Assembly: GCA_038858525.1 (NCBI GenBank)
Contig: JAWCFL010000025.1
Span: 13,927 to 26,773, forward strand
Direction: 5' to 3'
Length of the DNA stretch: 12,847 nucleotides
DNA from: Candidatus Jordarchaeales archaeon
GTDB lineage: Archaea > Asgardarchaeota > Jordiarchaeia > Jordiarchaeales > Freyrarchaeaceae
Shown here: positions 19 to 12,466 of the stretch, one piece after another
How positions within the stretch are numbered: position 1 is the stretch's first letter
Layout of the letters: the number at the start of each line of letters is the position of its first letter
Notes under the pieces: model-generated
Database searches by the model: none
What the model was told of the DNA's origin: nothing
What the model saw: only the letters and a program-made list of their open reading frames with translations
Made by a program: the position numbers and the translations under genes

Positions 19-55
19 TAGGCTTCGTTCTCCCATTATGTCGGGGTGATTGAAA

Positions 56-1714
56 ATGGAAGTGTTGGAGTTAAAGAAACCCGGCAGGAAACTTACAGTG
101 ATGGTGATTGAAAAGGAGTATGATGAAGTCATCAGGGAGCTCGAGGTTGCCGGGGACGGAGAGCTAGAAGTAAGAGTTCCAACACCAGCTTTCAAGGAAT
201 TTCTGAAGAAACTTGTTTCAAGTGCGAGGCCTGATTTTGCAACGGAGGAGCTGGGTGACCGTGACTCGAAAGGCAAAACAGAGCTTGCAGCAGTTTTCGA
301 GTCCCTAAAGGTTCCATTCTTCACTGTTGATATTGACGAGAACGCGAAGAACTATTTGCTCCACGAACTAGACACATTGAAAGATAAGCTAAAGGAGACG
401 CTGAAGACATTAAACGTGCTAAGAGAGAAAGGTGGGCACGAAGCAGACATAGACTACTTGACGGTTTACGCGGGCTATCTAAAGGACGAGTTGAAGGAGA
501 GTGCTGACCGCATCAAGCGAGAGGTTAGGCCAGCTTGGATAGTCAAAGGCATATTAGACGCCGCCGAGAAAGTCGCAGCCGGTAAGAAAGAGCTTATTGG
601 GATTCACGTATGCTCCCCCGTGCACCTCGACGAAGTTGTAAAGCTTTTAGAGTCACTCGGTGTTAGAGTGGAGGTAGCGTCCATGAAGAAGGAATATGTT
701 ATTGAGGAGGCTGCGGGCAGCAGCCCCGCCTCCATAAAAGTAAAGGTTAAACCTGTCGTAAAGGGAGCTGTAGGAAAATTCCCATACATACTTTTCTTCC
801 TGACAACAGACGATATCGCGAGCCCGTTCGACATATGCATGGCTTACGATGCCGGCTTCGACACGGTTAAGCCCTACGAATCCGTAACTCCCGAGAAAGC
901 GAAGGTCATAGTTCAGGACGCAATATTCTCACGCGGGACTAAAGGGGTCAAGTACACGTGCTTCTTCGTGAGTGGGAAAGACATCGACAAGGTTGAAGAT
1001 GCGGCTGAAGTCGTCAGGAAAACAATGTTCAAGCCCTTCAAGACGTCTGTTGTAGTGGATCCAAGGGGCGCCTATACTACTGCTGCAGCCATGATAGCCA
1101 AGGCGGAGGAAGGCCTTCAGAAAGCAAATCTCGGAGAGCTTACAGGGAAATCATGTGCAGTGTTCGGAACGGGTCCCGTGGGAATGATAGCTGCAGTCCT
1201 GCTGTCCAAGCTCGGCTGCGACACTGTGATAGCTGAACCATACGAGAAGCTGAGCCAAGCATACGTTGACTCTGTCGTAAACCGGCTCAAGGAGAGATAC
1301 GGAGTTAACGTCAAGGGTATTTTCGCCCCAACTAAGATCGAAAGAGCAAACATCGTGCAGAATGCCGATGTGGTCTTCACTGCTGCGGCGGCCGGCGTCA
1401 GAGTTATCGATGCGTCAATAATGGAAAAGATAAGGAAAGCCACTTTGTTCGTGGACATAAATGCTGTTCCACCGTCCGGAGTTGAGGGCGTAGAACCCAA
1501 AGACGACATGAAAGAAATAAGGCAGGGCGTTTATGGCATTGGCTCGCTGGCTGTAGGAGACCTAAAGTACAAGGTTGAAATGGAAATGTTACAGGACGCT
1601 AGGATAAGTGGCGACGGCTTCTTCGATTACAGTTACGCACTTGAAAAGGCAAGGGAGATCCTTAAAAGGAAAGTAGAGCTCGTGCCAGCGTTCACCGTGA
1701 CTGTTTCACGCTAA
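56..1714 (+). CDS. mtdB: NAD(P)-dependent methylene-tetrahydromethanopterin dehydrogenase (MtdB-like) fused to an uncharacterised ~210-aa N-terminal domain
   Basis: From nt 779 the protein has MtdB-type motifs SPFDxxMAYDAGF, QDAIFSR, DPRGAYTTAAAM, the Rossmann GTGPVG and DINAVPPSGVEG. ATG 56 is preferred over TTG 50 because of SD spacing (552 aa). Confidence 0.85.
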   Translation: MEVLELKKPGRKLTVMVIEKEYDEVIRELEVAGDGELEVRVPTPAFKEFLKKLVSSARPDFATEELGDRDSKGKTELAAVFESLKVPFFTVDIDENAKNYLLHELDTLKDKLKETLKTLNVLREKGGHEADIDYLTVYAGYLKDELKESADRIKREVRPAWIVKGILDAAEKVAAGKKELIGIHVCSPVHLDEVVKLLESLGVRVEVASMKKEYVIEEAAGSSPASIKVKVKPVVKGAVGKFPYILFFLTTDDIASPFDICMAYDAGFDTVKPYESVTPEKAKVIVQDAIFSRGTKGVKYTCFFVSGKDIDKVEDAAEVVRKTMFKPFKTSVVVDPRGAYTTAAAMIAKAEEGLQKANLGELTGKSCAVFGTGPVGMIAAVLLSKLGCDTVIAEPYEKLSQAYVDSVVNRLKERYGVNVKGIFAPTKIERANIVQNADVVFTAAAAGVRVIDASIMEKIRKATLFVDINAVPPSGVEGVEPKDDMKEIRQGVYGIGSLAVGDLKYKVEMEMLQDARISGDGFFDYSYALEKAREILKRKVELVPAFTVTVSR

Positions 1715-2718
1715 CAAAACCCTCTATCTATTACTATTTCTGCTATGTCCACAGCGTATTCTCCTATTTTTTCCATTGCTTTTTGTATAGAGCATATGGC
1801 ACATCCAACGTAAGGATCCGTTTCGTTTATAAGCCCCTCAGAAACCTTAAGCGACTTTTCCCGTATTCTGGGCCATCTCTCATCTATGATCAAGTTTGCC
1901 GTGTTTAAATCCTCTGAGAAAAACGCTTTGACGGCGTCGTCGTATATCTCCAACGATTGCCTTCCAAGGTCTACGAGCAAATTTAACACGTCGACAGCGA
2001 TCTTTTTTCCACGTCCACGTAGAAGTATGTATGTCCTAGCCACTTCCGAGGCACAGTCGGCAGTATGCTCTATCTTGTTAATCAGCGTTTGGTACTCTAG
2101 GCAATCCGCGGCGTCGACGTTCAGCTTCTCCGCAAGCAACGGGTCCTGTATTGCCTTCTTCAACACTCTCAGAAGGAAGAACGAAAAGTGATCCACGTCG
2201 TCATCAAGCGTATAAACCGCTCTAGCGGCGTCTAGAGCGTCCTCCTCCAGTGCCTTAACAGCGCTTTCACACATAGAGTATGCTACGGAATGCATGCGCC
2301 TAACGCTCATGTTTAGCGAAACCTTAGCTTCATCTAGGGCTGCCTCAAGGTACATGTGCTTAGAAGTCGACTCCATAATCCTAAGATAAAGCATTCTCGC
2401 CACTTTTCGTATACCCTTCTGCTGAGATGGAGACAAGATCCCATCGGACTTGATCACGATGCTTTTGTAACCGTTTAAGTAACAAGCTATTATTTTTCTG
2501 GAGAGCGATGCAAATTGTTCATCCTTACCAACAGTTATCTCCACATGTTTGTCCTCTTTTTCCGAGAGAGAGACAGGAGACAAAACCAATGCTCCGTCCC
2601 GCCTCACAGAAAGCGAAACAGCATCCCCCTTCTTCAACCTATGAAATTCAAGCCACTCTTTCGGCAGCGAAACAACCAATGAAGACCTGCCGAGCGAAAT
2701 TATTCTTCGAACGTCCAT
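1711..2718 (-). CDS. AbrB-domain / PhoU-domain transcriptional regulator (archaeal phosphate-uptake-regulator family)
   Basis: The N-terminus VRRIISLGRSSLVVSLPKEW...LKKGD is an AbrB fold. PhoU-like helical repeats follow (DDDVDHF...INKIEHTADCA; MEKIGEYAVDIAE). Start reassigned to ATG 2718, which has GGTGG upstream (335 aa). Confidence 0.88.
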   Translation of the reverse strand: MDVRRIISLGRSSLVVSLPKEWLEFHRLKKGDAVSLSVRRDGALVLSPVSLSEKEDKHVEITVGKDEQFASLSRKIIACYLNGYKSIVIKSDGILSPSQQKGIRKVARMLYLRIMESTSKHMYLEAALDEAKVSLNMSVRRMHSVAYSMCESAVKALEEDALDAARAVYTLDDDVDHFSFFLLRVLKKAIQDPLLAEKLNVDAADCLEYQTLINKIEHTADCASEVARTYILLRGRGKKIAVDVLNLLVDLGRQSLEIYDDAVKAFFSEDLNTANLIIDERWPRIREKSLKVSEGLINETDPYVGCAICSIQKAMEKIGEYAVDIAEIVIDRGFC

Positions 2719-2846
2719 CCAATTCCACCATGAATAATGTTGAAAAAGTATTCCTGAATATATTTTTAAAATTAAGGATATATACTTGTTTTTCATGGAG
2801 CCATTTACTTGAAGCATTAAGAAATTCAAGGTTAAGGTGTTTGGTC

Positions 2847-3278
2847 ATGCGCATCTATTTCTCCGCACCTTTATTCTGTGAGGCTGAACGTGCCTTCAAC
2901 GAAAAAGTAGCCACAAGGCTTCGTGAAGCAGGGTTCGAAGTCTGGCTTCCTCAGGAAATATCAATAGTGAAAAGTGAGTCTGAGGGAGAGAAGAAATTCA
3001 TTTACGAGTTAAACGTTTCAGCGCTTAAGAATAGCGACGTAGTTGTTGCGGTTTTGGACGGAGCTAACGTGGATAGCGGTGTCGCCTTTGAGGTCGGATA
3101 CGCTACCGCGCTGGGAAAACAAGTAATAGGCTTAAAAACTGATCATCGTGTTTTTTCTAAATTCGAGGAAGTCAACTTGATGCTTGAATTTTCTATGAAA
3201 TCTATTTGTAAGACTGTCGAAGAGCTCATTGACTTTTTAAAGGTCATTAGTAGCTCCCGCACTCAGCTTACCCATTAA
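2847..3278 (+). CDS. Nucleoside 2-deoxyribosyltransferase / nucleotide N-hydrolase family protein
   Basis: Motifs IYFSAPLF, WLPQE and DVVVAVLDG..VDSGVAFEVGYATALGK, with the catalytic Glu in FEVGY. Real start is ATG 2847 (143 aa). The upstream in-frame extension overlaps the PhoU-family gene antisense. Confidence 0.85.
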   Translation: MRIYFSAPLFCEAERAFNEKVATRLREAGFEVWLPQEISIVKSESEGEKKFIYELNVSALKNSDVVVAVLDGANVDSGVAFEVGYATALGKQVIGLKTDHRVFSKFEEVNLMLEFSMKSICKTVEELIDFLKVISSSRTQLTH

Positions 3279-3507: not shown

Positions 3508-4674
3508 ATGGTTGATTTTCGTCTTTCCGAGGAGCAGATTGCCCTTCGTGAGAAAGCCCGAAAATTCGCACTTGAAGAAGTCTATCCCGTAGCTCCATAT
3601 TACGACAAGACTGGAGAGTTTCCGATGGACGTCATAAAAAAGGCACACAAAGAGGGGCTCATGAACCTTGGTATACCGAAGGAGTATGGTGGTCCCGGAT
3701 ACGGCGCCCTTGAATCAGTCTTGGTTGTTGAGGAAATGGCTGCTGCTTGCGCCGGGATGGCCACCACCATCTACGCTAATGACCTCGGTGCAGAACCAAT
3801 CATCCTCATGGGGACAGATGAGCAGAAACGCAGATTCCTAACTCCACTAACAAGGGAGCCTCTCCTAATCTCGTTTGCCACTACCGAGCCTGGAATGGGG
3901 TCCGACGTTGCAGGCATCAGGACGACATGTGAACGCGACGGGGACGAATATGTACTTAACGGCAGCAAGATGTTTATAACAAACGGCAACCACGCCGAAT
4001 TTATAGTTATATTCGCTCGGCTTAAAGGCACAAGGCGACATGAAGGGTTATGCGCCTTCGTCGTTCCACGTGAAACGGAAGGAATGAAAACATACGGCCC
4101 CCTCAAAAAGCTTGGACACAGGGCGTCCGACACGGCAACCATCGTCCTTAAAGATGCACGGGTACCAGCTGAGAACAGGATAGGCCCGGAAGGAAGCGGC
4201 TTCATGCTAGCCATGATGACCTTCATGCATACACGGCCAGCTATAGGAGCCATGGCAACGGGATTAGCCCGCTCAGCAATGGAGTACGCCATAAATTACG
4301 CCAAACAACGGGAAGCCTTCGAAAAGAAGCTCTACGAGTTTCAAGCAATTCAACACATGATCGCAGACATGTATGCTCGCATTGAAGCAATGAGGCTTCT
4401 AACGTGGAAAGCAGCATGGCTCCTTGATCAAGGGGAGAACGCTTGGATAGCGGCCAGCGTAGCAAAGCTCGTCGGCTCAGAGGACGCGATGAAAATAGCT
4501 ACAGACGCCCTCCAAATATACGGAGGAAGAGGATACCTTGAAAGCTACAAAATAGCAAAAATTTTCCGCGACGCAAAACTCTATCAGATCTATGAAGGAA
4601 CTTCCCAAATACAGCGACACATCATTTCACGATACCTATTCAAAGAGTACCAAACACTCATAAAGGACTTTTAA
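3508..4674 (+). CDS. acd: Acyl-CoA dehydrogenase (short/medium-chain type)
   Basis: FAD-binding FATTEPGMGSD, GSKMFITN, KLGHRASDT, QFQ-like EFQAIQHMIADM, GGRGY, and catalytic Glu in QIYEGTSQIQR. 388 aa. Confidence 0.95.
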   Translation: MVDFRLSEEQIALREKARKFALEEVYPVAPYYDKTGEFPMDVIKKAHKEGLMNLGIPKEYGGPGYGALESVLVVEEMAAACAGMATTIYANDLGAEPIILMGTDEQKRRFLTPLTREPLLISFATTEPGMGSDVAGIRTTCERDGDEYVLNGSKMFITNGNHAEFIVIFARLKGTRRHEGLCAFVVPRETEGMKTYGPLKKLGHRASDTATIVLKDARVPAENRIGPEGSGFMLAMMTFMHTRPAIGAMATGLARSAMEYAINYAKQREAFEKKLYEFQAIQHMIADMYARIEAMRLLTWKAAWLLDQGENAWIAASVAKLVGSEDAMKIATDALQIYGGRGYLESYKIAKIFRDAKLYQIYEGTSQIQRHIISRYLFKEYQTLIKDF

Positions 4675-5375: not shown

Positions 5376-5798
5376 TCACTTTACTTTTTCGAGTATTATC
5401 GCTGGGCAGACTCTAGTGACGCCTTGTATAGCCTCAAGCTTCCTGCAGAAGTCGATTAACTCGTTAGAGTTTCTGAACCAACACTCTAGTAGAATCATAT
5501 GATCTCCGCTTGTAGCGTAAACACTAACTGCTTCCCTCATGCTCTTTACTTTTTCTATTACTAGTAGGTAGCTTTCAGGCTTAGTATCTAACCCTATTAG
5601 TGCGTTCGCCTCGAACCCCATTTTTCGGAGGTCTACATCAATAGTGTACTTTTTTATCACTCCGCTTTTTTCAAGTCTTTTCACTCTTTTTCTAATGGTC
5701 GCTTCACTTACGCCCAATTCATTCGCTATTCTGAGAAACGGTGTCCTCGCGTTTTCTCTAAGAATTTCTATAATTTTTAAGTCCGAAATTCGAACCAT
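5376..5798 (-). CDS. lrpA: Lrp/AsnC family regulator, LrpA-like
   Basis: N-terminal HTH (ENARTPFLRIANELGVSEATIRKRVKRLE) and a RAM domain with SGDHM and VCPAIILEK, as in Pyrococcus LrpA. 140 aa. Confidence 0.88.
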   Translation of the reverse strand: MVRISDLKIIEILRENARTPFLRIANELGVSEATIRKRVKRLEKSGVIKKYTIDVDLRKMGFEANALIGLDTKPESYLLVIEKVKSMREAVSVYATSGDHMILLECWFRNSNELIDFCRKLEAIQGVTRVCPAIILEKVK

Positions 5799-5802
5799 AA
5801 AG

Positions 5803-5836
5803 TATATTAATTAGAATAAAAATATAAACTTGTCGT
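5803..5836. promoter_or_regulatory. Overlapping divergent promoters of lrpA and rubrerythrin
   Basis: On -, CGACAAG-TTTATATT lies 22 nt before the lrpA ATG, suggesting a leaderless transcript. On +, TATATTAA (5803-5810) and AATATAAA (5821-5828) lie upstream of SD GGAGG and ATG 5860. Confidence 0.55.
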
Positions 5837-5859
5837 ATCATAATGGGAGGATTTTTGTC

Positions 5860-6444
5860 ATGAAGGCAACACTTGAAGCGCTGGTCAAGGCGTTCATAGG
5901 TGAAAGCCAGGCGAGAAACCGCTACAGTTTCTATGCGAAGAAGGCTAAGGAGGAAGGATATGAGCAGATAGCAGAAGTTTTCCTAATTACGGCTGAGAAT
6001 GAGAGGGAGCACGCAAGCAACCTCTTCAAGCTCATTAATGAACTGAGGAGGAAGAGCGGCGGGAAACCAGAGGAAATTGTTGTGGAAGCGTCGGCTCCGC
6101 TAATTCTTGGTAGCACAGCCGAGAACTTGAAAGCGGCTATTGCGGGGGAAAACTACGAGTACACGAAAATGTATCCTGAATTCGCAAACATAGCGGAGAA
6201 AGAGGGATTTGCCGAGATCGCAAAGAAGCTGAGGGCGATAGCTAAAGCAGAACAGCATCACGAGGAAAGGTACCGGAAGATACTTGCGCAGGTGGAAGCA
6301 GGAACAGTCTTCAAAAAGGACAAAGAGGTCTGGTGGGTTTGCAGGGAATGCGGTTACGTTCATTATGGCAAAGAACCGCCTGAAGAGTGCCCGTCATGTG
6401 GCCACAAGAGGAGCTACTTCCAGCTTAAATGCGAAGAGTACTAA
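5860..6444 (+). CDS. rbr: Rubrerythrin
   Basis: Di-iron ligands [21 protein letters not shown] and EQHHEERY, plus a C-terminal rubredoxin-like CRECG...CPSCG. Start is ATG 5860 after GGAGG (194 aa). Confidence 0.95.
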
Positions 6445-6460
6445 AATAGACCCGCACTTG

Positions 6461-6476
6461 CTTCCTCCCCCTTTTT
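6461..6476 (+). terminator. Pyrimidine/U tract after rbr
   Basis: CTTCCTCCCCCTTTTT begins 17 nt after the rbr stop. Confidence 0.35.
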
Positions 6477-7309
6477 CATGTGCCAACTCTGAATTTCTCC
6501 GTCATTTGCTTTAGCGTCCTTATAGCGCTTAGCGCAGCTAGGTAGCTTGTTTCTGGATTCTCTGGAGAAGGGTAGTTCTGAGTTATGCAGGTGAGCTTTC
6601 CAAACGCGCCCTCAACATGAATTTCATGTATGTTCTTTTTTACGGTTGGATCAACGATCACTTTAACCCTAGTTTTATCTGCTCCCACTCCGGCGAGGCT
6701 AAGCGTCAAAGCCACATTTATGCCCTTAGGGAAAAGTCGCGCCGCCTCTCTGGCAGCTCCCTCAAAAAGAACTGTGGGCTCACTTACCTCGTCTAGATTT
6801 ATCCCCTTCTGTTTCACATACTCGTTTCCCCTGAAAGCTGCGGGCGGCTTCCTAGTTACAAGTTCAACTCTCTCTATTTGCTCCATGGCAGCAGCCTTAA
6901 CCGCATCTATACCGCTTATGGCGCCTGAAGGTATATAGACGTGGACCCCCCTTTCCTCCAATATTTTAAGTATTTTTTCATAAAAATTCTGGTCATAGAA
7001 AGCTCCCACACTCAAAACCATGAGGTCCTTTCCCGCCAAAAGCACCTTTTCACTGTAATCCTTAACGGCTGAAGGAGCCGCAGCTTCAATAACAATGTTA
7101 ACCTTTTTGTCATTTACGACTTCATCTATGCTCCCCGCTACTTTTGGCCTCTTCTTGAGGGAATCAGCCAGCTTAACAGCTTTCTCCTTAACAACGTCGA
7201 AAAGATAAATTAATTCGACATCTCCAGCTTTTCCCTCATCAATCGCTTTTGCTAATGTGCTACCGATTGCACCACAACCTATGATTGCAACGTTTATCAA
7301 AGGGGACAC
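6476..7309 (-). CDS. nadX: L-aspartate dehydrogenase
   Basis: GCGAIG Rossmann motif, SVGA, PSGAISGIDA, INVA, NIHEI (catalytic His) and NPETSYLAALS. Start is GTG 7309 or TTG 7300. Confidence 0.92.
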   Translation of the reverse strand: MSPLINVAIIGCGAIGSTLAKAIDEGKAGDVELIYLFDVVKEKAVKLADSLKKRPKVAGSIDEVVNDKKVNIVIEAAAPSAVKDYSEKVLLAGKDLMVLSVGAFYDQNFYEKILKILEERGVHVYIPSGAISGIDAVKAAAMEQIERVELVTRKPPAAFRGNEYVKQKGINLDEVSEPTVLFEGAAREAARLFPKGINVALTLSLAGVGADKTRVKVIVDPTVKKNIHEIHVEGAFGKLTCITQNYPSPENPETSYLAALSAIRTLKQMTEKFRVGT

Positions 7310-7353: not shown

Positions 7354-7397
7354 CATTGGAAGCTCATCGTTAATAAAAGCTTTTAGTGGGTGAGGAC

Positions 7398-8042
7398 ATG
7401 TATACCGCGGTTGTTAAAGTTGGAGGAAGTCTAGCTCGCTCAAAAAGAAATCTCAAGCGTCTCTGCTCTAAGCTGTCCAGTCTAGGGAAACGTTACCCAC
7501 TGCTCCTAGTTCCAGGAGGGGGACCATTCGCAGACGAGGTAAGAAAGGAGTACCGCAGGTTTAAGCTAAGCGAAGACGTTGCACACTGGATGGCTCTAAT
7601 GGCTATGAACCAGTTCGGACTTATGCTCGCTGAGCTGACAGGAATCGAAGCCAGCGAAGCTATTGGTGGCGGAAAAACCATTGTTTTTCTGCCATTCCGG
7701 CTGATCTTCGAGGATGACCCTCTCCCTCACTCTTGGGACATCACGTCCGACTCCGTTGCCGCATACATTGCTTGGAAAGCCAAGGTATCAATGGTTATTC
7801 TTCTAAAAGATGTTGATGGAGTTTTTTCTAATGACCCTAAAAGGCACGCTGATGCTAAGTTGCTTGAAAACGTGAAAGCTTTTGACCTAGCATCTCTGGG
7901 AGTTTCAACAAGCGTGGACCCCTTCTTCCCAAAACTTGTAGGAAATTACGGTATTGAAGCATGGGTTATAAATGGCAAATATCCCGAGAGGCTCGAGAAA
8001 CTTCTTTCGGAAGGAAGAACTATGGGGACGAGAATTTATTAA
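7398..8042 (+). CDS. mfnE: [5-(aminomethyl)furan-3-yl]methyl phosphate kinase (MfnE-like; amino-acid-kinase family)
   Basis: VVKVGGSL, VPGGGPFADEVR, AHWMALMAM, LPHSWDITSDSVAAYIA and KDVDG match the MfnE/Orf21 subfamily signature. mfnB is nearby. Start is ATG 7398 after GGGTGAGG (214 aa). Confidence 0.8.
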   Translation: MYTAVVKVGGSLARSKRNLKRLCSKLSSLGKRYPLLLVPGGGPFADEVRKEYRRFKLSEDVAHWMALMAMNQFGLMLAELTGIEASEAIGGGKTIVFLPFRLIFEDDPLPHSWDITSDSVAAYIAWKAKVSMVILLKDVDGVFSNDPKRHADAKLLENVKAFDLASLGVSTSVDPFFPKLVGNYGIEAWVINGKYPERLEKLLSEGRTMGTRIY

Positions 8043-8743
8043 CTACTTTTTAGTATCTCGTCAGACCTTTCTAGAATACTTTTTATTGGTGGGGCGAGCC
8101 AGAAAACGCCTGCTCTCCAGTCAACTTCGACGTAGCCTCTCAGTTCAAGCCAGTTAAACACCTTTCTCGTAGATGCTAAGTTAAACTTCATGGTGTCTGC
8201 AAACTGGCTTATCCCTCCAGCTTTCCCATCATACTTGCTTAGTACATTAAGTAGTGGGGCTACTTTTTCTATTAGCTTCGCGAGCAGTGTTCTCAGGGCG
8301 AGTGAAAGGTTTAACCCGGTTACGGTGCTGGTGCCTATCACGGGGACATCATCCGGAATATCGAAGACCTGCTTGATGACTTCTGGAGGCCGGGCCCCTT
8401 CCACATCCTGCTTGTTCGCAAGGTACACGCGTGTAGTGTCTGGGAGAAACTCGTCGACCTCTCTCCTCACGGCTTTTGCCTCCTCGTCCCGTCTTGAATC
8501 GGCACTATCTATTACGAAGAGGACGCCGTCAGCTCCCTTCGAAAGTATTTCCCTCAGAACCCTAAAATGCTTCATACCCGGCGTTCCGAAAAGATGTACT
8601 CTAAGCCCCTCAATGTCAACCCTTCCGTAATCAAGAGCCACCGTTGTTTCGTGCTTGTCAATATGTATGCTTCTCCCACCCGAAAGGAACTTTACAACAC
8701 TTGACTTGCCCGAATGGTATCCGCCAGTAACCAGCACCTTCAA
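8039..8743 (-). CDS. Small Ras-like/MglA-type GTPase with a C-terminal winged-helix-like extension
   Basis: G1 GGYHSGKSS, G2 TTVALDYG, G3 FGTPG, G4 NKQD and G5 TST. An extra ~75 aa show a three-helix plus beta-hairpin pattern. TTG start. Confidence 0.85.
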   Translation of the reverse strand: MKVLVTGGYHSGKSSVVKFLSGGRSIHIDKHETTVALDYGRVDIEGLRVHLFGTPGMKHFRVLREILSKGADGVLFVIDSADSRRDEEAKAVRREVDEFLPDTTRVYLANKQDVEGARPPEVIKQVFDIPDDVPVIGTSTVTGLNLSLALRTLLAKLIEKVAPLLNVLSKYDGKAGGISQFADTMKFNLASTRKVFNWLELRGYVEVDWRAGVFWLAPPIKSILERSDEILKSS

Positions 8744-8848
8744 GCCAATACACCAACACCAACATTTTTTAAACGTATTTCATTAAGAAGCCAGCAAACC
8801 TAAAAACTCTTCGGACGAAACTTAAAAGTCACCTTGGAGTAACGCATT

Positions 8849-9583
8849 TCACTTAAACTTCTCCCTTAATTCTGCCTCTCTGATTAGAGAGACCAGCTCC
8901 CTAACTCTCGAGCTCGTTATGCGTCCCCTCACTCTGTCCCCTCCATCGCACGCCGCCCCTCTAACCCCCACTATGTCTGCCCCCGTCTTCACGATCAACG
9001 GCAAGTCTTCCCTGCGAAGTGAGCCAGCCAAAGCAACGCTTAACCCTCTATCCTTAGCGAGCAAAACAAAGCGCCTCACCCCCTCCTCACCCCAAATGTC
9101 GACTAAGCTGAGCCCATCCTTAACAGCTGTGTCAACCATCGCAACGTCAGCCTCCGCCTCCTCAACCACTATCGGCACGAGAAAAGGGTCGATAGCACCA
9201 ACTCTTCCCGCATCAGCATACCCAGCAATAACAACCTTAACCCTCAGACTGAACTCCTTAACAGCTCTCACAACGCTCTTCGAAAGATAAACTGCATCTT
9301 CAAACTTGCTTACACCATAAAGGCCAACCTTCACATAATTAACACCACTCACCGCTGCCCCCAAAGCCGCGAGCGCAACGGTACCGGGCTTAAAGGGAAC
9401 ATCACCAACAGTTGCGCTAACCTCAACCTCCCTGGGGACGACTTCACGCACCCTCCTGATCACCCACGGAAAATTGGCGCCCAGAGACCCCTCAGCAGGG
9501 TTCTTAACGTCTATTATGTCTGCTCCTCCAGCGACAGCCTCCAAGGCCTCAAACTCGTCAACAGGACTCACTAGAAGCTTCAT
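8849..9583 (-). CDS. mfnB: (5-formylfuran-3-yl)methyl phosphate synthase (4-HFC-P synthase)
   Basis: KLLVSP, DIIDVKNPxEGSLGA, YVKVG, GYAD, MVDTAVKDG and GSL...VGVRGAAC. Counting from ATG 9583 gives D25, K27, K85 and D151, matching the catalytic residues I recall for M. jannaschii MfnB. SD GGTGG upstream. Confidence 0.95.
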   Translation of the reverse strand: MKLLVSPVDEFEALEAVAGGADIIDVKNPAEGSLGANFPWVIRRVREVVPREVEVSATVGDVPFKPGTVALAALGAAVSGVNYVKVGLYGVSKFEDAVYLSKSVVRAVKEFSLRVKVVIAGYADAGRVGAIDPFLVPIVVEEAEADVAMVDTAVKDGLSLVDIWGEEGVRRFVLLAKDRGLSVALAGSLRREDLPLIVKTGADIVGVRGAACDGGDRVRGRITSSRVRELVSLIREAELREKFK

Positions 9584-9616
9584 GGAAACCACCTAACACG
9601 AAACTACTCAAACCCC

Positions 9617-10079: not shown

Positions 10080-12440
10080 TTACTTCTTCTCTCTTACAAG
10101 TCGTGGTAGTAGTGTTGGGTCAGGTATTTCAGTGGGCTTCCAGCCTCTATCCTTCAATTCGCGCAGCAAGTCCTCTTTGAACGTGATCGGAATGTCGCCT
10201 TCAACTCTGATGAACTTGTCTATATCGTCCGGCCACTCCTTGCCCAAGTATTTCCTCGTTAAGTCGATGTAGTGGCTTAGCTTTATTTGTCGTCCCTTAG
10301 TCGTGTCGTTTGGTCTGAGGCAGAGCTTCGCGGTCAGAACTATGCATTCCTCCTTAGTCTCCGCTACCACGATAAGGTGCTCAGGCGTCGGTCCAACGTA
10401 AACCTTCTCTCCCGTTCTGGCATTGTAGACGTACCAGTCCTCGTCGACGTCGCTTCTGCCAAGATACTGCCGCCTGTACTTGGATCCATGTGGCCCAACT
10501 ATAACCGGTATGCCCCACATGTTAACTCCGGTAGCTATTGAGGCTGCCTTCTGTGAGTAGGCGCCCCAGGCAACGCCAACAGCCCCCACACGGTTGAGAA
10601 TGTAGTCCGCTATCTCCTCAAAGTTTCCTCTCAGATTTCTTCTGGCGAAAATACTTGCTATCTTTACTGCTGCTCCAACTATGTGGGAGTTTGCTACGCA
10701 AGAGCCGACGTTGACTAATCCTCCAGCATCGAAATTGCCAGGGTACTTCTCGTAAAGTGTTAAGCCTTCCTCATCCCTGTAGCGGCCAAGGTCCATAGCT
10801 GAGCATCCACTAGCGACCACAATATACCTTCTCTTCAGGAATTCCTCCGCCATCTCGACGAGGTCCTTGTGACCATTAGGATAATTCGCGCATCCGACGT
10901 AAGCTATGACGCCAGGTATCTCGCCAAGCACTATCGGTGAGCCAACATTCCTGATCTCCGTGTCCTTTATGGGGCCTCTTCCGCTTCTCATCTTGTAGCG
11001 GTCCTCCTTGATCTGCTTCTCGGCTGCTCTGACTATGAGGTCGTGCACCGGTATGCCCTGCGGGCAGACTTGACTACACCTGTTGCAAGAGACGCACGCA
11101 TCATATATGTCCGCAAGCTTGTTCAAGTCTCCATCAGCGGCAGCCTTGACGGCATATCCAGTCGGTAAGTCCTCGGGGCAAGCCCGCTGGCATGTGTGGC
11201 AGAGAGTGCATTTGGATGCAAGCTCAACGAGCTTCTTCTTGTCAGGTATAACCTTGTACTTCTTCCTTAAGGGGGCTAGCTTCATCGCCACTCTAACCGC
11301 TACTTCTCCCGCTTTTTCTGGGTCAGATATGAAGACGCCGTTTTCCGTCTGGCTGAGTGCTCCCTTAACCAAGTCCTCAACTATAGCGTCAACCGGGTCG
11401 TTTGTCCTGTCTGGCAGACCTCCAATGTTCTTGTCGGTTGTCGCTATGAACGCAGCCTTAATCTTCCTAGCCTCAAGAAGGTTATCGGTGCGTATGCACT
11501 GCTCGTCGACTACGACTACGTCAGGGGCTCCAGACCTAACATACCTTAACTGCCTGCTTATCGTCCCAACAATCTTGTATCTCGCATCATACCTCGTAAG
11601 ATCTATTGCTGTGCAGCATATACCAGCAACCTCAACTTGGTCCTCTAAGCCGTGCTCCCGCAAGTAGTCTATTATGCCGACCGCGGGTATAACGTTGTGA
11701 CCTATAACCAATATCACGGGCTTCTCTAAGTCCACCACGCCCATTCCTACCTCGACCAGAGGGGCTTCGGGGTCTCCCTTGGGGAACCCCAGCGTCGTTA
11801 TCTGGATTATGTCCGCTACTTCCATCGCTAGAAAGTCCATTAGGCCTATGTGGAGCGCCTTTGCTTCGAAGTCAAGGTAGTTGCTTTCCTGTCCGGTGTG
11901 AGTCGCAGACATGCAGTGGAGCACCTGCTCCTGGACGTAGTCGAGTACCGGGATGAAATCTCTAAGTGTTTTGGGCCTTATGCCGCACATCGTTCTCGTT
12001 ATCGGCGCCTCGACGGCAATATCATCACCCAGGTTTATCGGGTAATCTGGCCCATACCTACGGATCAGCTCGTCAAGCATGTGTCTAGCATGCCCTGCGT
12101 GGGCGGAGCAACCCATGAGGCACGCAATGAGAACGATACGTCCCTGCTGGTCACCAATGTTTATTCCGCAAGCCCCCCTCTTACCGGCGGTCAGGTCACA
12201 ATGCCCAAATGTACAAAGACAGCATTTATCGCAGAATGGAGCGTAGAAAGGCCTGTAGCGTTTTAGGATAGTGTGCGCCCAGTTTCTAGTAGTGAGTATG
12301 TTCGGGAATGGCATCGGGCCCTGAGGCTCCCATTCTTCCTCTTCCTCTATGATCTCGCCTATGTACATTTCAAGGTTCTTGAACGAAGCCATTCCTGTTT
12401 TTAACATGTCTGCCTTTATTTTTGCAGCTGGCTTTACCAT
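10080..12440 (-). CDS. cdhA: Acetyl-CoA decarbonylase/synthase complex alpha subunit (Ni,Fe-CO dehydrogenase)
   Basis: CDKCCLCTFGHC (D/B clusters), HAGHARH, C-cluster ligands GHN, GICCT, DEQC, VGCAN, SGCS and GSC, QKA lysine, and the extra 2x[4Fe-4S] domain CTLCHTCQRACP / CVSCNRCSQVCP. Start is ATG 12440 after GGAGG (786 aa). Confidence 0.97.
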   Translation of the reverse strand: MVKPAAKIKADMLKTGMASFKNLEMYIGEIIEEEEEWEPQGPMPFPNILTTRNWAHTILKRYRPFYAPFCDKCCLCTFGHCDLTAGKRGACGINIGDQQGRIVLIACLMGCSAHAGHARHMLDELIRRYGPDYPINLGDDIAVEAPITRTMCGIRPKTLRDFIPVLDYVQEQVLHCMSATHTGQESNYLDFEAKALHIGLMDFLAMEVADIIQITTLGFPKGDPEAPLVEVGMGVVDLEKPVILVIGHNVIPAVGIIDYLREHGLEDQVEVAGICCTAIDLTRYDARYKIVGTISRQLRYVRSGAPDVVVVDEQCIRTDNLLEARKIKAAFIATTDKNIGGLPDRTNDPVDAIVEDLVKGALSQTENGVFISDPEKAGEVAVRVAMKLAPLRKKYKVIPDKKKLVELASKCTLCHTCQRACPEDLPTGYAVKAAADGDLNKLADIYDACVSCNRCSQVCPQGIPVHDLIVRAAEKQIKEDRYKMRSGRGPIKDTEIRNVGSPIVLGEIPGVIAYVGCANYPNGHKDLVEMAEEFLKRRYIVVASGCSAMDLGRYRDEEGLTLYEKYPGNFDAGGLVNVGSCVANSHIVGAAVKIASIFARRNLRGNFEEIADYILNRVGAVGVAWGAYSQKAASIATGVNMWGIPVIVGPHGSKYRRQYLGRSDVDEDWYVYNARTGEKVYVGPTPEHLIVVAETKEECIVLTAKLCLRPNDTTKGRQIKLSHYIDLTRKYLGKEWPDDIDKFIRVEGDIPITFKEDLLRELKDRGWKPTEIPDPTLLPRLVREKK

Positions 12441-12466
12441 TTTAGCCCTCCACAAGCATTATCATG

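Follow-up and report, generated by a model that had tools for sequence, protein, structure and literature searches.

A Ras-like small GTPase with a fused winged helix and without the catalytic glutamine in Asgard archaea

The MglA-type small GTPases of groups 2-5 are defined by a G3 motif that reads GTPGQ, without Asp, and by Thr-Thr in G2; they correspond to the COG2229-type "ATP/GTP-binding proteins", and for group 4, which is archaeal, no conserved neighbours have been reported (Wuichet & Sogaard-Andersen 2015, PMC4316618). The subject of this report is a gene of 234 amino acids (aa), called GTPase-wH below, that lies in a stretch of 12,847 nucleotides (nt) of contig JAWCFL010000025.1 from a Candidatus Jordarchaeales archaeon ("the window" is this whole stretch as analysed); the host genome, from the Asgard phylum, is 2.09 Mb in size and 92.7% complete. 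The gene encodes a Ras-like G domain followed by a winged helix. With MglA groups 2-5 it shares a G3 GTPG that lacks Asp, Thr-Thr in G2 instead of the group 1 Arg, NKxD and a small Ras-like size, and its closest paralogue within the host genome is a typical member of these groups with a Roadblock neighbour. It differs from them in having Leu or Met for Gln, a fused winged helix and, mostly, no adjacent Roadblock (MglB) gene. Thus, the GTPGQ signature is only half present in the family (GTPG is invariant, but L, M, H or E stands where Q would be).

Two further systems are close enough to be compared. In actinobacterial conservons, a GTPase (CvnD/MfpB) occurs together with a DUF742 guanine nucleotide exchange factor (GEF; CvnC/MfpC), a Roadblock GTPase-activating protein (GAP; CvnB/MfpD) and a kinase (CvnA). 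The likeness lies in the company of an MglA-type GTPase with helix-turn-helix (HTH)-type and Roadblock proteins, as one GTPase-wH gene row, that of family f7 (see below), includes a Roadblock gene, whereas the winged helix is not detectably DUF742, there is no sensor kinase, and GTPase-wH is archaeal and not actinobacterial. Among solved structures, the G domain is best matched by ArfR proteins (HodArfR1, GerdArfR1; 8OUK, 8OUL, 8OUM, 8OUN; profile E 4.5e-21, Foldseek identity 25-31%), which are from Asgard archaea too. ArfR keeps the catalytic Gln (HodArfR1 was crystallised as Q72L), carries an N-terminal amphipathic membrane helix and has no winged helix; in contrast, GTPase-wH has L or M after GTPG, lacks the N-terminal helix and has the winged helix.

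The small GTPases of Asgard archaea have drawn study as forerunners of the Ras, Rab, Arf and Rag systems of eukaryotes. The two main surveys published on them report single-domain forms and longin/roadblock fusions only (PMC10933270; 10.1101/2024.02.28.582541). Full-text literature searches returned no paper describing the GTPase-wH fusion, no characterised member of the family was found, and a PDB sequence search gave no solved structure covering the winged helix; an earlier reading of the DNA, made from the sequence alone (the sequence-only reading), had likewise not recognised the architecture among characterised archaeal regulators, and this view holds. In these searches, the GTPase-wH family occurred in Asgard archaea only, usually as a single copy. 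The reading favoured here, to which a probability of roughly 0.4 is given, is that the winged helix gives a long-lived GTP switch its docking module, the partner of which is somewhat more likely to be a protein.

The G domain and its G3 motif

For aa 1-155, the Arf, Ras and MMR_HSR1 models pass the Pfam cut-offs. Foldseek matches this domain to Arl2, Rab1, Asgard ArfR and MglA (E ~2e-11), and its top sequence matches in PDB are the Asgard ArfR entries 8OUK/8OUM and MglA 3T12. The features of the Ras superfamily (TRAFAC P-loop GTPases) are found, i.e., G1 GxxxxGK[ST], the G2 Thr, G4 [NT]KxD and a Ras-like fold, whereas the Ras-type G3 DxxGQ is absent, neither its Asp nor its Gln occurring in the window gene or the family.

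Conservation was followed in a family alignment of 39 sequences and in a survey of 40 loci from 17 GTDB families. These families are numbered here (f1, f2, etc.) because the NCBI lineage labels on proteins from metagenome-assembled genomes (MAGs) are inconsistent; for example, a single clade is labelled Thor, Hermod, Heimdall and Loki. GTPG is invariant in the alignment and was found in 39 of the 40 surveyed orthologues, the remaining locus being one of f26 in which no G[TS]PG motif was found. The residue that follows is Leu in most lineages, Met only in close relatives of the window's archaeon, His in f28 and Glu in f19, and in none of the 39 orthologues with a recognisable G3 is it Gln. The sequence-only reading had seen GTPGM in the window gene and had taken the Met to replace the catalytic Gln. 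This is borne out by the closest paralogue, which has FGTPGQ, and by the definition of MglA groups 2-5; the change is not special to this gene, as L or M, and rarely H or E, stands there throughout the family. G2 reads TT in most lineages and YT in f9. NKQD is invariant in the alignment, with a few NKLD, NKKD, NKSD, TKQD and TKPD variants in the locus survey. A bulky Tyr stands in the P-loop at the position equated with Ras Gly12 (Ras numbering was assigned by eye from the alignment).

A Q-to-L change at the catalytic Gln is the standard block of hydrolysis in Ras and Arf proteins, applied also in HodArfR1 as Q72L, and the GTPase-wH family naturally carries the equivalent of this classical "GTP-locked" mutation. 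The sequence-only reading had proposed a slow-hydrolysing switch on these grounds. The replacement of Gln stands, while the slow hydrolysis is weakened by the HAS-GTPases, in which a hydrophobic residue takes the place of the catalytic Gln and GTP is hydrolysed by other means (10.1101/2020.08.16.253419, PMC2848588). GTPase-wH resembles HAS-GTPases (Era, FeoB, MnmE, YqeH, RbgA) in being hydrophobic at the Gln position (Met57 or Leu), although these belong to other GTPase families, and neither the P-loop Asn nor the K-loop features that mark the cation-dependent members are conserved in GTPase-wH (the Asn position holds H, N, Q, E, L or R). Since HAS-GTPases hydrolyse GTP despite their hydrophobic residue, slow GTP hydrolysis by the GTPase-wH protein is plausible but unproven.

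The same likeness raises the question of whether GTPase-wH might be an RNA- or ribosome-associated GTPase, the winged helix of which binds RNA (as in SelB; Era and EngA do so via KH) and which is activated in the HAS manner by an RNA or ribonucleoprotein substrate. SelB, an EF-Tu-type multi-domain GTPase with four C-terminal winged helices that binds SECIS RNA, resembles GTPase-wH as a GTPase with C-terminal winged-helix targeting domains but differs in its RNA ligand, and no sequence relationship between the two was seen. The hydrophobic substitution defines the HAS-GTPases, most of which act at the ribosome, and single-copy occurrence with broad conservation would fit a housekeeping role; moreover, MfpB acts at the level of translation (PMC11343762). 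However, the G domain is of the MglA/Arf type and not of the Era, Obg or translation-factor type, the P-loop Asn of cation-dependent HAS-GTPases is variable, the family is missing from ~40% of the sampled Asgard genomes, and no ribosomal gene context is seen. Such a role is regarded as very improbable.

The winged-helix domain

The full-length AlphaFold2 model, computed from the 39-sequence alignment, has a mean predicted local distance difference test score (pLDDT) of 89.4 and a predicted template modelling score (pTM) of 0.86; modelled on its own, the winged helix has a pLDDT of 89.8. The predicted elements are helices 146-169, 177-185 and 189-201, strands 205-208 and 213-216 and a helix 218-232, and thus include the three helices and two-strand hairpin wing of a winged helix-turn-helix (wHTH) fold. 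The C-terminal helices and hairpin listed in the sequence-only reading reappear in this model. The fusion that it had proposed is confirmed as a real 234-aa gene in which a Pfam G domain is followed by a C-terminus that models with confidence as a wHTH (AlphaFold2, Foldseek).

Searched alone by Foldseek, the domain retrieved almost only wHTH chains of the MarR, IclR, CggR and PadR types, and these weakly (probability up to 0.98, E 0.07-0.4). VIA-align returned MarR/ArsR-type chains at Z 8.5-7, values near the tool's stated background, as well as NLR winged-helix domains, Csa3 and Rio2; modest scores are expected at ~60 residues, and the match lists are consistent despite them. With Pfam, the C-terminal ~80 residues alone gave no match. 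Scans of each of the 39 sequences gave sub-threshold matches to TFIIE_alpha (19/39) and MksE (15/39), then to TrmB, HTH_5 and HTH_IclR; as these are of many kinds, no specific wHTH family is assignable. An ESM Atlas feature search with aa 158-234 returned no usable match. A two-copy complex prediction based on the family alignment scored 0.00, i.e., it gave no answer and says nothing for or against a homodimer.

The sequence-only reading saw in the protein a candidate one-component GTP-sensing DNA-binding protein, with protein docking as the other option for the wHTH. Spelled out, the former would be a transcription factor whose winged helix binds DNA and whose nucleotide state alters its affinity or the recruitment of the transcription machinery. 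The fusion and the wHTH fold speak for this proposal, as do the weak sequence matches to the MarR, ArsR, IclR, TrmB and TFIIE-alpha wHTH families and the distant tail of the exhaustive profile search, which consists of ordinary ArsR/IclR-like wHTH regulators (whole-library E 2e-6 to 8e-4). By eye, the register of helix 2, helix 3 and wing fits the ArsR pattern; most lineages retain an Arg or Lys midway along helix 3, and f9 has a basic wing. The protein is without membrane-anchor features, and an apparent promoter of its own, together with a conserved TTG start, would fit a regulator of low abundance. Set against this, helix 3 differs between lineages, especially in the N-terminal half that would be expected to read bases, and it is acidic in f21. 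Like MarR, ArsR and IclR proteins, GTPase-wH has three helices and a beta-hairpin wing (Z up to 8.5, sequence matches below threshold), whereas the dimerisation helices typical of those proteins are absent and the domain occurs only fused to this GTPase. Net charge and Lys plus Arg content are uninformative on DNA binding because an IclR-like control is also at 0 (family median 0). Furthermore, no target-gene neighbourhood is conserved (synteny with mfn genes is limited to f1 and f2), no conserved palindrome is evident in the aligned f1/f2 upstream regions (visual inspection only), and the f7 gene is accompanied by TPR and Roadblock genes. Thus, fusion and fold survive from the earlier proposal, while the variable recognition helix and the lineage-varying neighbours count against the regulator itself, which is considered possible but rather doubtful.

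Distribution, gene context and possible role

Approximately 200 homologues of 218-268 aa align end to end with the protein (E down to 1e-126), and all are labelled as Asgard; an architecture shared so widely is far beyond chance. Matches to a winged-helix profile occur in 147 of 251 Asgard genomes (61 of the 89 high-quality ones), with one copy per matched genome in all but one genome and in frames of ~225-260 aa. When the profile was run against 1.84 billion representative proteins, 38 matches at E <=1e-3 were obtained, and nearly all significant ones are the GTPase-wH architecture or pieces thereof; a search of longer proteins agrees. The architecture census suggested in the sequence-only reading has returned almost only this architecture, and the family is the only place with this winged-helix subfamily. 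In ESM Atlas, a structure search gave full-length matches in Asgard clusters only, whereas the G domain alone retrieved archaeal KaiC-GTPase fusions and bacterial "ATP/GTP-binding" proteins. The nearest named relatives are MAG proteins labelled Freyarchaeota (67-83% identity), and the identical 234-aa protein is recorded on 17 contigs. Public names of members are generic ("50S ribosome-binding GTPase", "ADP-ribosylation factor-like protein", "SRP receptor beta"); none of the three is supported, and such generic or wrong database names can now be corrected.

In a tree of G domains, all winged-helix-bearing members form a single clade (support 87/94). Outside it stand two G-only proteins from lineages in which the winged-helix profile had no match, first one from f13 (166 aa, L054:3048-3548 in genome G012) with a canonical GTPGQ and an adjoining KaiC-like gene, and then one from f15 (171 aa, L053:3005-3520 in G029) with GTPGL and without a winged helix. 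These two could represent intermediates or the outcome of a secondary loss. That Q-to-L preceded the fusion is only tentative because the branches of the tree are long and the f15 protein may have lost its winged helix. Upstream of the f15 gene lies a 97-aa open reading frame (ORF; L053:2396-2689), the C-terminal half of which presumably resembles the eukaryotic ribosomal protein eL22. From the motifs, the GTPase-wH family most probably descends from small GTPases of the MglA group 2-5 type and appears to have two derived features, i.e., the change of the catalytic Gln to Leu (Met in this genus) and the extension of the last G-domain helix into a winged helix.

The closest paralogue in the host genome is a 420-aa fusion of a KaiC-like domain with an MglA-type GTPase (FGTPGQ, 36% identity), directly followed by a Roadblock/LC7 gene and then another KaiC-like gene (C4:97305-99718; L005:3305-5718). 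A KaiC gene lies upstream of it and a Rab-like GTPase gene 2.6 kb downstream; the KaiC-GTPase architecture is also present in Atlas clusters from Thermoplasmatota and Methanobacteriota.

As loss of Gln and gain of the winged helix mark the same clade, it could be asked whether the winged helix regulates the nucleotide cycle in cis, either as a fused counterpart of a CvnC/MfpC-like GEF or as a nucleotide-sensing winged helix like that of STAND NTPases. In mycobacteria, the HTH-type protein MfpC (DUF742) has been shown experimentally to be a GEF for the MglA group 2 GTPase MfpB, i.e., it acts on a protein partner and not via DNA (PMC11343762). The top structural matches include NLR/STAND winged-helix domains, and the pTM given above suggests a fixed arrangement of the two domains. 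However, scans of the individual members failed to find DUF742 in the winged helix at E <=10, and a genome search with the DUF742 model gave no match at the GTPase-wH gene, a weak negative as control genomes also stayed below the cut-off. In addition, the f15 relative has the Leu substitution without a winged helix, and the attachment point, the end of the last helix, lies far from the nucleotide in Ras-like folds as generally known. Regulation in cis is considered improbable.

No neighbour is universally conserved across the 40 loci, and synteny is found within lineages only. In f1 and f2, the order is mfnB, GTPase-wH and then the convergent mfnE; in f9, hdr-like genes precede GTPase-wH, which is followed by convergent PEPCK, thermosome and AsnC genes. 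In f7 and f26, GTPase-wH is followed on its own strand by overlapping or closely spaced genes for a TPR protein (~300 aa), a ~1290-aa protein with a weak Peptidase_C25-like region and a Roadblock/LC7 protein (120 aa). This row was found at 11 loci (L010:6105-12228 and 10 others, including L011-L014, L033 and L042-L045), at one of which the contig stops before the Roadblock position. It looks operon-like, with GTPase-wH at its head, and would suggest a protein-protein GTPase module no less than a transcription factor. Only f7 and f26 were seen to have a Roadblock gene in the row, and none of the 16 Robl_LC7 genes of the host genome is near the window gene. In f3 and f20, a TPR gene is immediately upstream of GTPase-wH.

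The TPR proteins of f3 and f7 are not specifically related to each other, and that of f3 has no match in the window's genome. The f7 protein has as its best match there a 275-aa TPR protein (C4:56140-56871), the gene of which adjoins a longin-like gene and a 1045-aa MIT-containing gene, with no GTPase gene adjacent; this 1045-aa protein is unrelated to the ~1290-aa protein of f7. The row (C4:56122-60726, minus strand; L046:7123-11726) thus comprises the 1045-aa MIT-like protein, a 131-aa longin-like protein and the 275-aa TPR protein. The longin-like protein has weak Clat_adaptor_s and Intu_longin_1 matches.

A functional link to the methanofuran genes mfnB and mfnE or to cdhA is unsupported, as this neighbourhood is found only in f1 and f2. 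The promoters of these genes (mfnB, mfnE and cdhA) had been suggested for binding tests by the sequence-only reading, a link that falls with a synteny confined to two related families.

With these observations in hand, the preferred reading of the winged helix as a docking module can be set out. Intact G1, G2, G4 and G5 would bind GTP or GDP with Mg. As the Gln is missing and the residue at the Ras Gly12 position is bulky, a GAP mechanism of the Ras type would be unlikely; thus, the GTP state should be long-lived or be ended only by a partner supplying catalysis in trans. In the Ras fold, the end of the last helix points away from the switch regions, far from the nucleotide. As the winged helix extends this helix, with its end directed away from the switches, a docking or targeting role is favoured. 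The part of the winged helix would be that of a fixed module for docking or targeting, like the lipidated tail of Ras and Rab, with the switch face left free to bind partners according to nucleotide state. A protein (e.g., TPR or Roadblock/longin) is rated a somewhat likelier docking partner than sequence-specific DNA. The TPR-Roadblock row of f7/f26 and the upstream TPR genes of f3/f20 provide a protein-module context for this reading, and MfpC offers an example of an HTH-type protein with a GTPase as its protein partner.

Several points weigh against the docking reading. The winged helix is, in fold and weak sequence similarity, closest to the DNA-binding MarR, ArsR, IclR and TrmB regulators, and most lineages retain the basic residue midway along helix 3. 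A partner gene shared by the whole family is lacking; hence, the idea of protein docking rests on a minority of lineages, and their TPR neighbours, which are common in Asgard genomes, may be coincidental. The placement of the winged helix relative to the switches is derived from secondary structure and general knowledge of the fold. Finally, a hydrophobic residue at the Gln site is not in itself proof of slow hydrolysis (10.1101/2020.08.16.253419, PMC2848588).

Alternatively, where Ras, Rab and Arf are tethered to membranes by a lipid tail, the winged helix could tether a switch with a long-lived GTP state to DNA or chromatin. This is considered unlikely. If it were true, a Ras-superfamily GTPase would recruit partners to the genome by nucleotide state in the closest prokaryotic relatives of eukaryotes, which would constitute a direct route from a small GTPase to DNA without known counterpart in bacteria, other archaea or eukaryotes.

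Whichever role applies, GTPase-wH is usually single-copy, in contrast to the massively expanded other Asgard GTPase families, and it is spread over many Asgard lineages. The protein is small, soluble and easily expressed, and it would allow a link between a Ras-like switch and nucleic acid to be tested. It also poses the further questions of whether a winged helix can act as a handle for TPR, Roadblock or longin proteins and of how GTP is hydrolysed without the catalytic Gln.

The gene in its window

Features of the gene and its surroundings are listed in Table 1. The gene is flanked by mfnB on the same strand across the intergenic spacer and by the convergent mfnE, the end of which overlaps that of GTPase-wH by 4 nt; cdhA is located further upstream. 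Several genes around it belong to C1 metabolism (cdhA, mfnB, the mfnE-like kinase and the Mpt_N protein). As to the parts of a conservon, domain scans of the window ORFs found no kinase gene and no Roadblock gene.

Table 1. Features of the GTPase-wH gene and neighbouring genes (window positions)
Feature	Position	Strand	Basis or remark
GTPase-wH gene, 234 aa	8039..8743	-	TTG start 8743-8741, stop codon 8039-8041; listed ORF, homologues
G domain, aa 1-155	8279..8743	-	Pfam MMR_HSR1, Arf, Ras, SRPRB, E ~1e-10
G1 / P-loop GGYHSGKS, aa 7-14	8702..8725	-	
G2 / switch I T33-T34	8642..8647	-	T34 invariant
G3 / switch II GTPGM, aa 53-57	8573..8587	-	Without Asp; Met57 at catalytic Gln position
G4 NKQD, aa 110-113	8405..8416	-	Guanine-specificity motif
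G5 TST, aa 138-140	8324..8332	-	
Predicted continuous helix, aa 146-169	8237..8308	-	AlphaFold2; last G-domain helix continuing as winged-helix helix 1
Predicted winged-helix domain, aa ~160-217	8093..8266	-	AlphaFold2, Foldseek, VIA-align, profile scans
Predicted helix 3 ("recognition" helix), aa 189-201, LASTRKVFNWLEL	8141..8179	-	AlphaFold2
Predicted beta-hairpin wing, aa 205-216, VEVDWRAGVFWL	8096..8131	-	D208 nearly invariant
Predicted C-terminal helix, aa 218-232	8048..8092	-	Lineage-specific, absent in f9 orthologues; end of low pLDDT
Spacer GTPase-wH / mfnB, 105 nt	8744..8848	-	Alignment of f1/f2 upstream regions
mfnB (4-HFC-P synthase)	8849-9592	-	
mfnE-like kinase	7386-8042	+	Score under NCBIfam cut-off
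cdhA (carbon monoxide dehydrogenase/acetyl-CoA synthase alpha)	10080-12455	-	TIGR00314, 1201 bits
554-aa protein, methylene-tetrahydromethanopterin dehydrogenase N-terminal domain (Mpt_N)	50-1714	+	
372-aa protein, MazE/AbrB-type domain and PhoU domains	1711-2829	-	
256-aa nucleoside 2-deoxyribosyltransferase-like protein	2508-3278	+	Weak TIR_2 match
Acyl-CoA dehydrogenase	3508-4674	+	Ordinary annotation
Lrp/AsnC regulator	5376-5798	-	Divergent pair with rubrerythrin; ordinary annotation
Rubrerythrin	5830-6444	+	Divergent pair with Lrp/AsnC regulator; ordinary annotation
Aspartate dehydrogenase (NadX type)	6476-7309	-	Ordinary annotation

The genes for the 372-aa and 256-aa proteins overlap by ~320 nt on opposite strands; therefore, at least one of their starts is probably mis-set.

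The TTG start is common to all 8 f1 and f2 orthologues. Comparison of the orthologous spacers (L006, L007 and L048-L052, from these two families) revealed a conserved box, AAG(A/G)xTTTTTTA, ~55-75 nt upstream of the TTG, which corresponds in the window to the T-run at 8799-8814. A second A/T-rich box is found ~20-40 nt upstream, with a TATA-like sequence at 8763-8775, and a GGTG-rich stretch (8751-8760) precedes the start codon. The conserved box may be an oligo-T terminator of mfnB or a B recognition element/TATA element; judged from this layout, the spacer would hold the mfnB terminator and then a promoter of the GTPase-wH gene itself.

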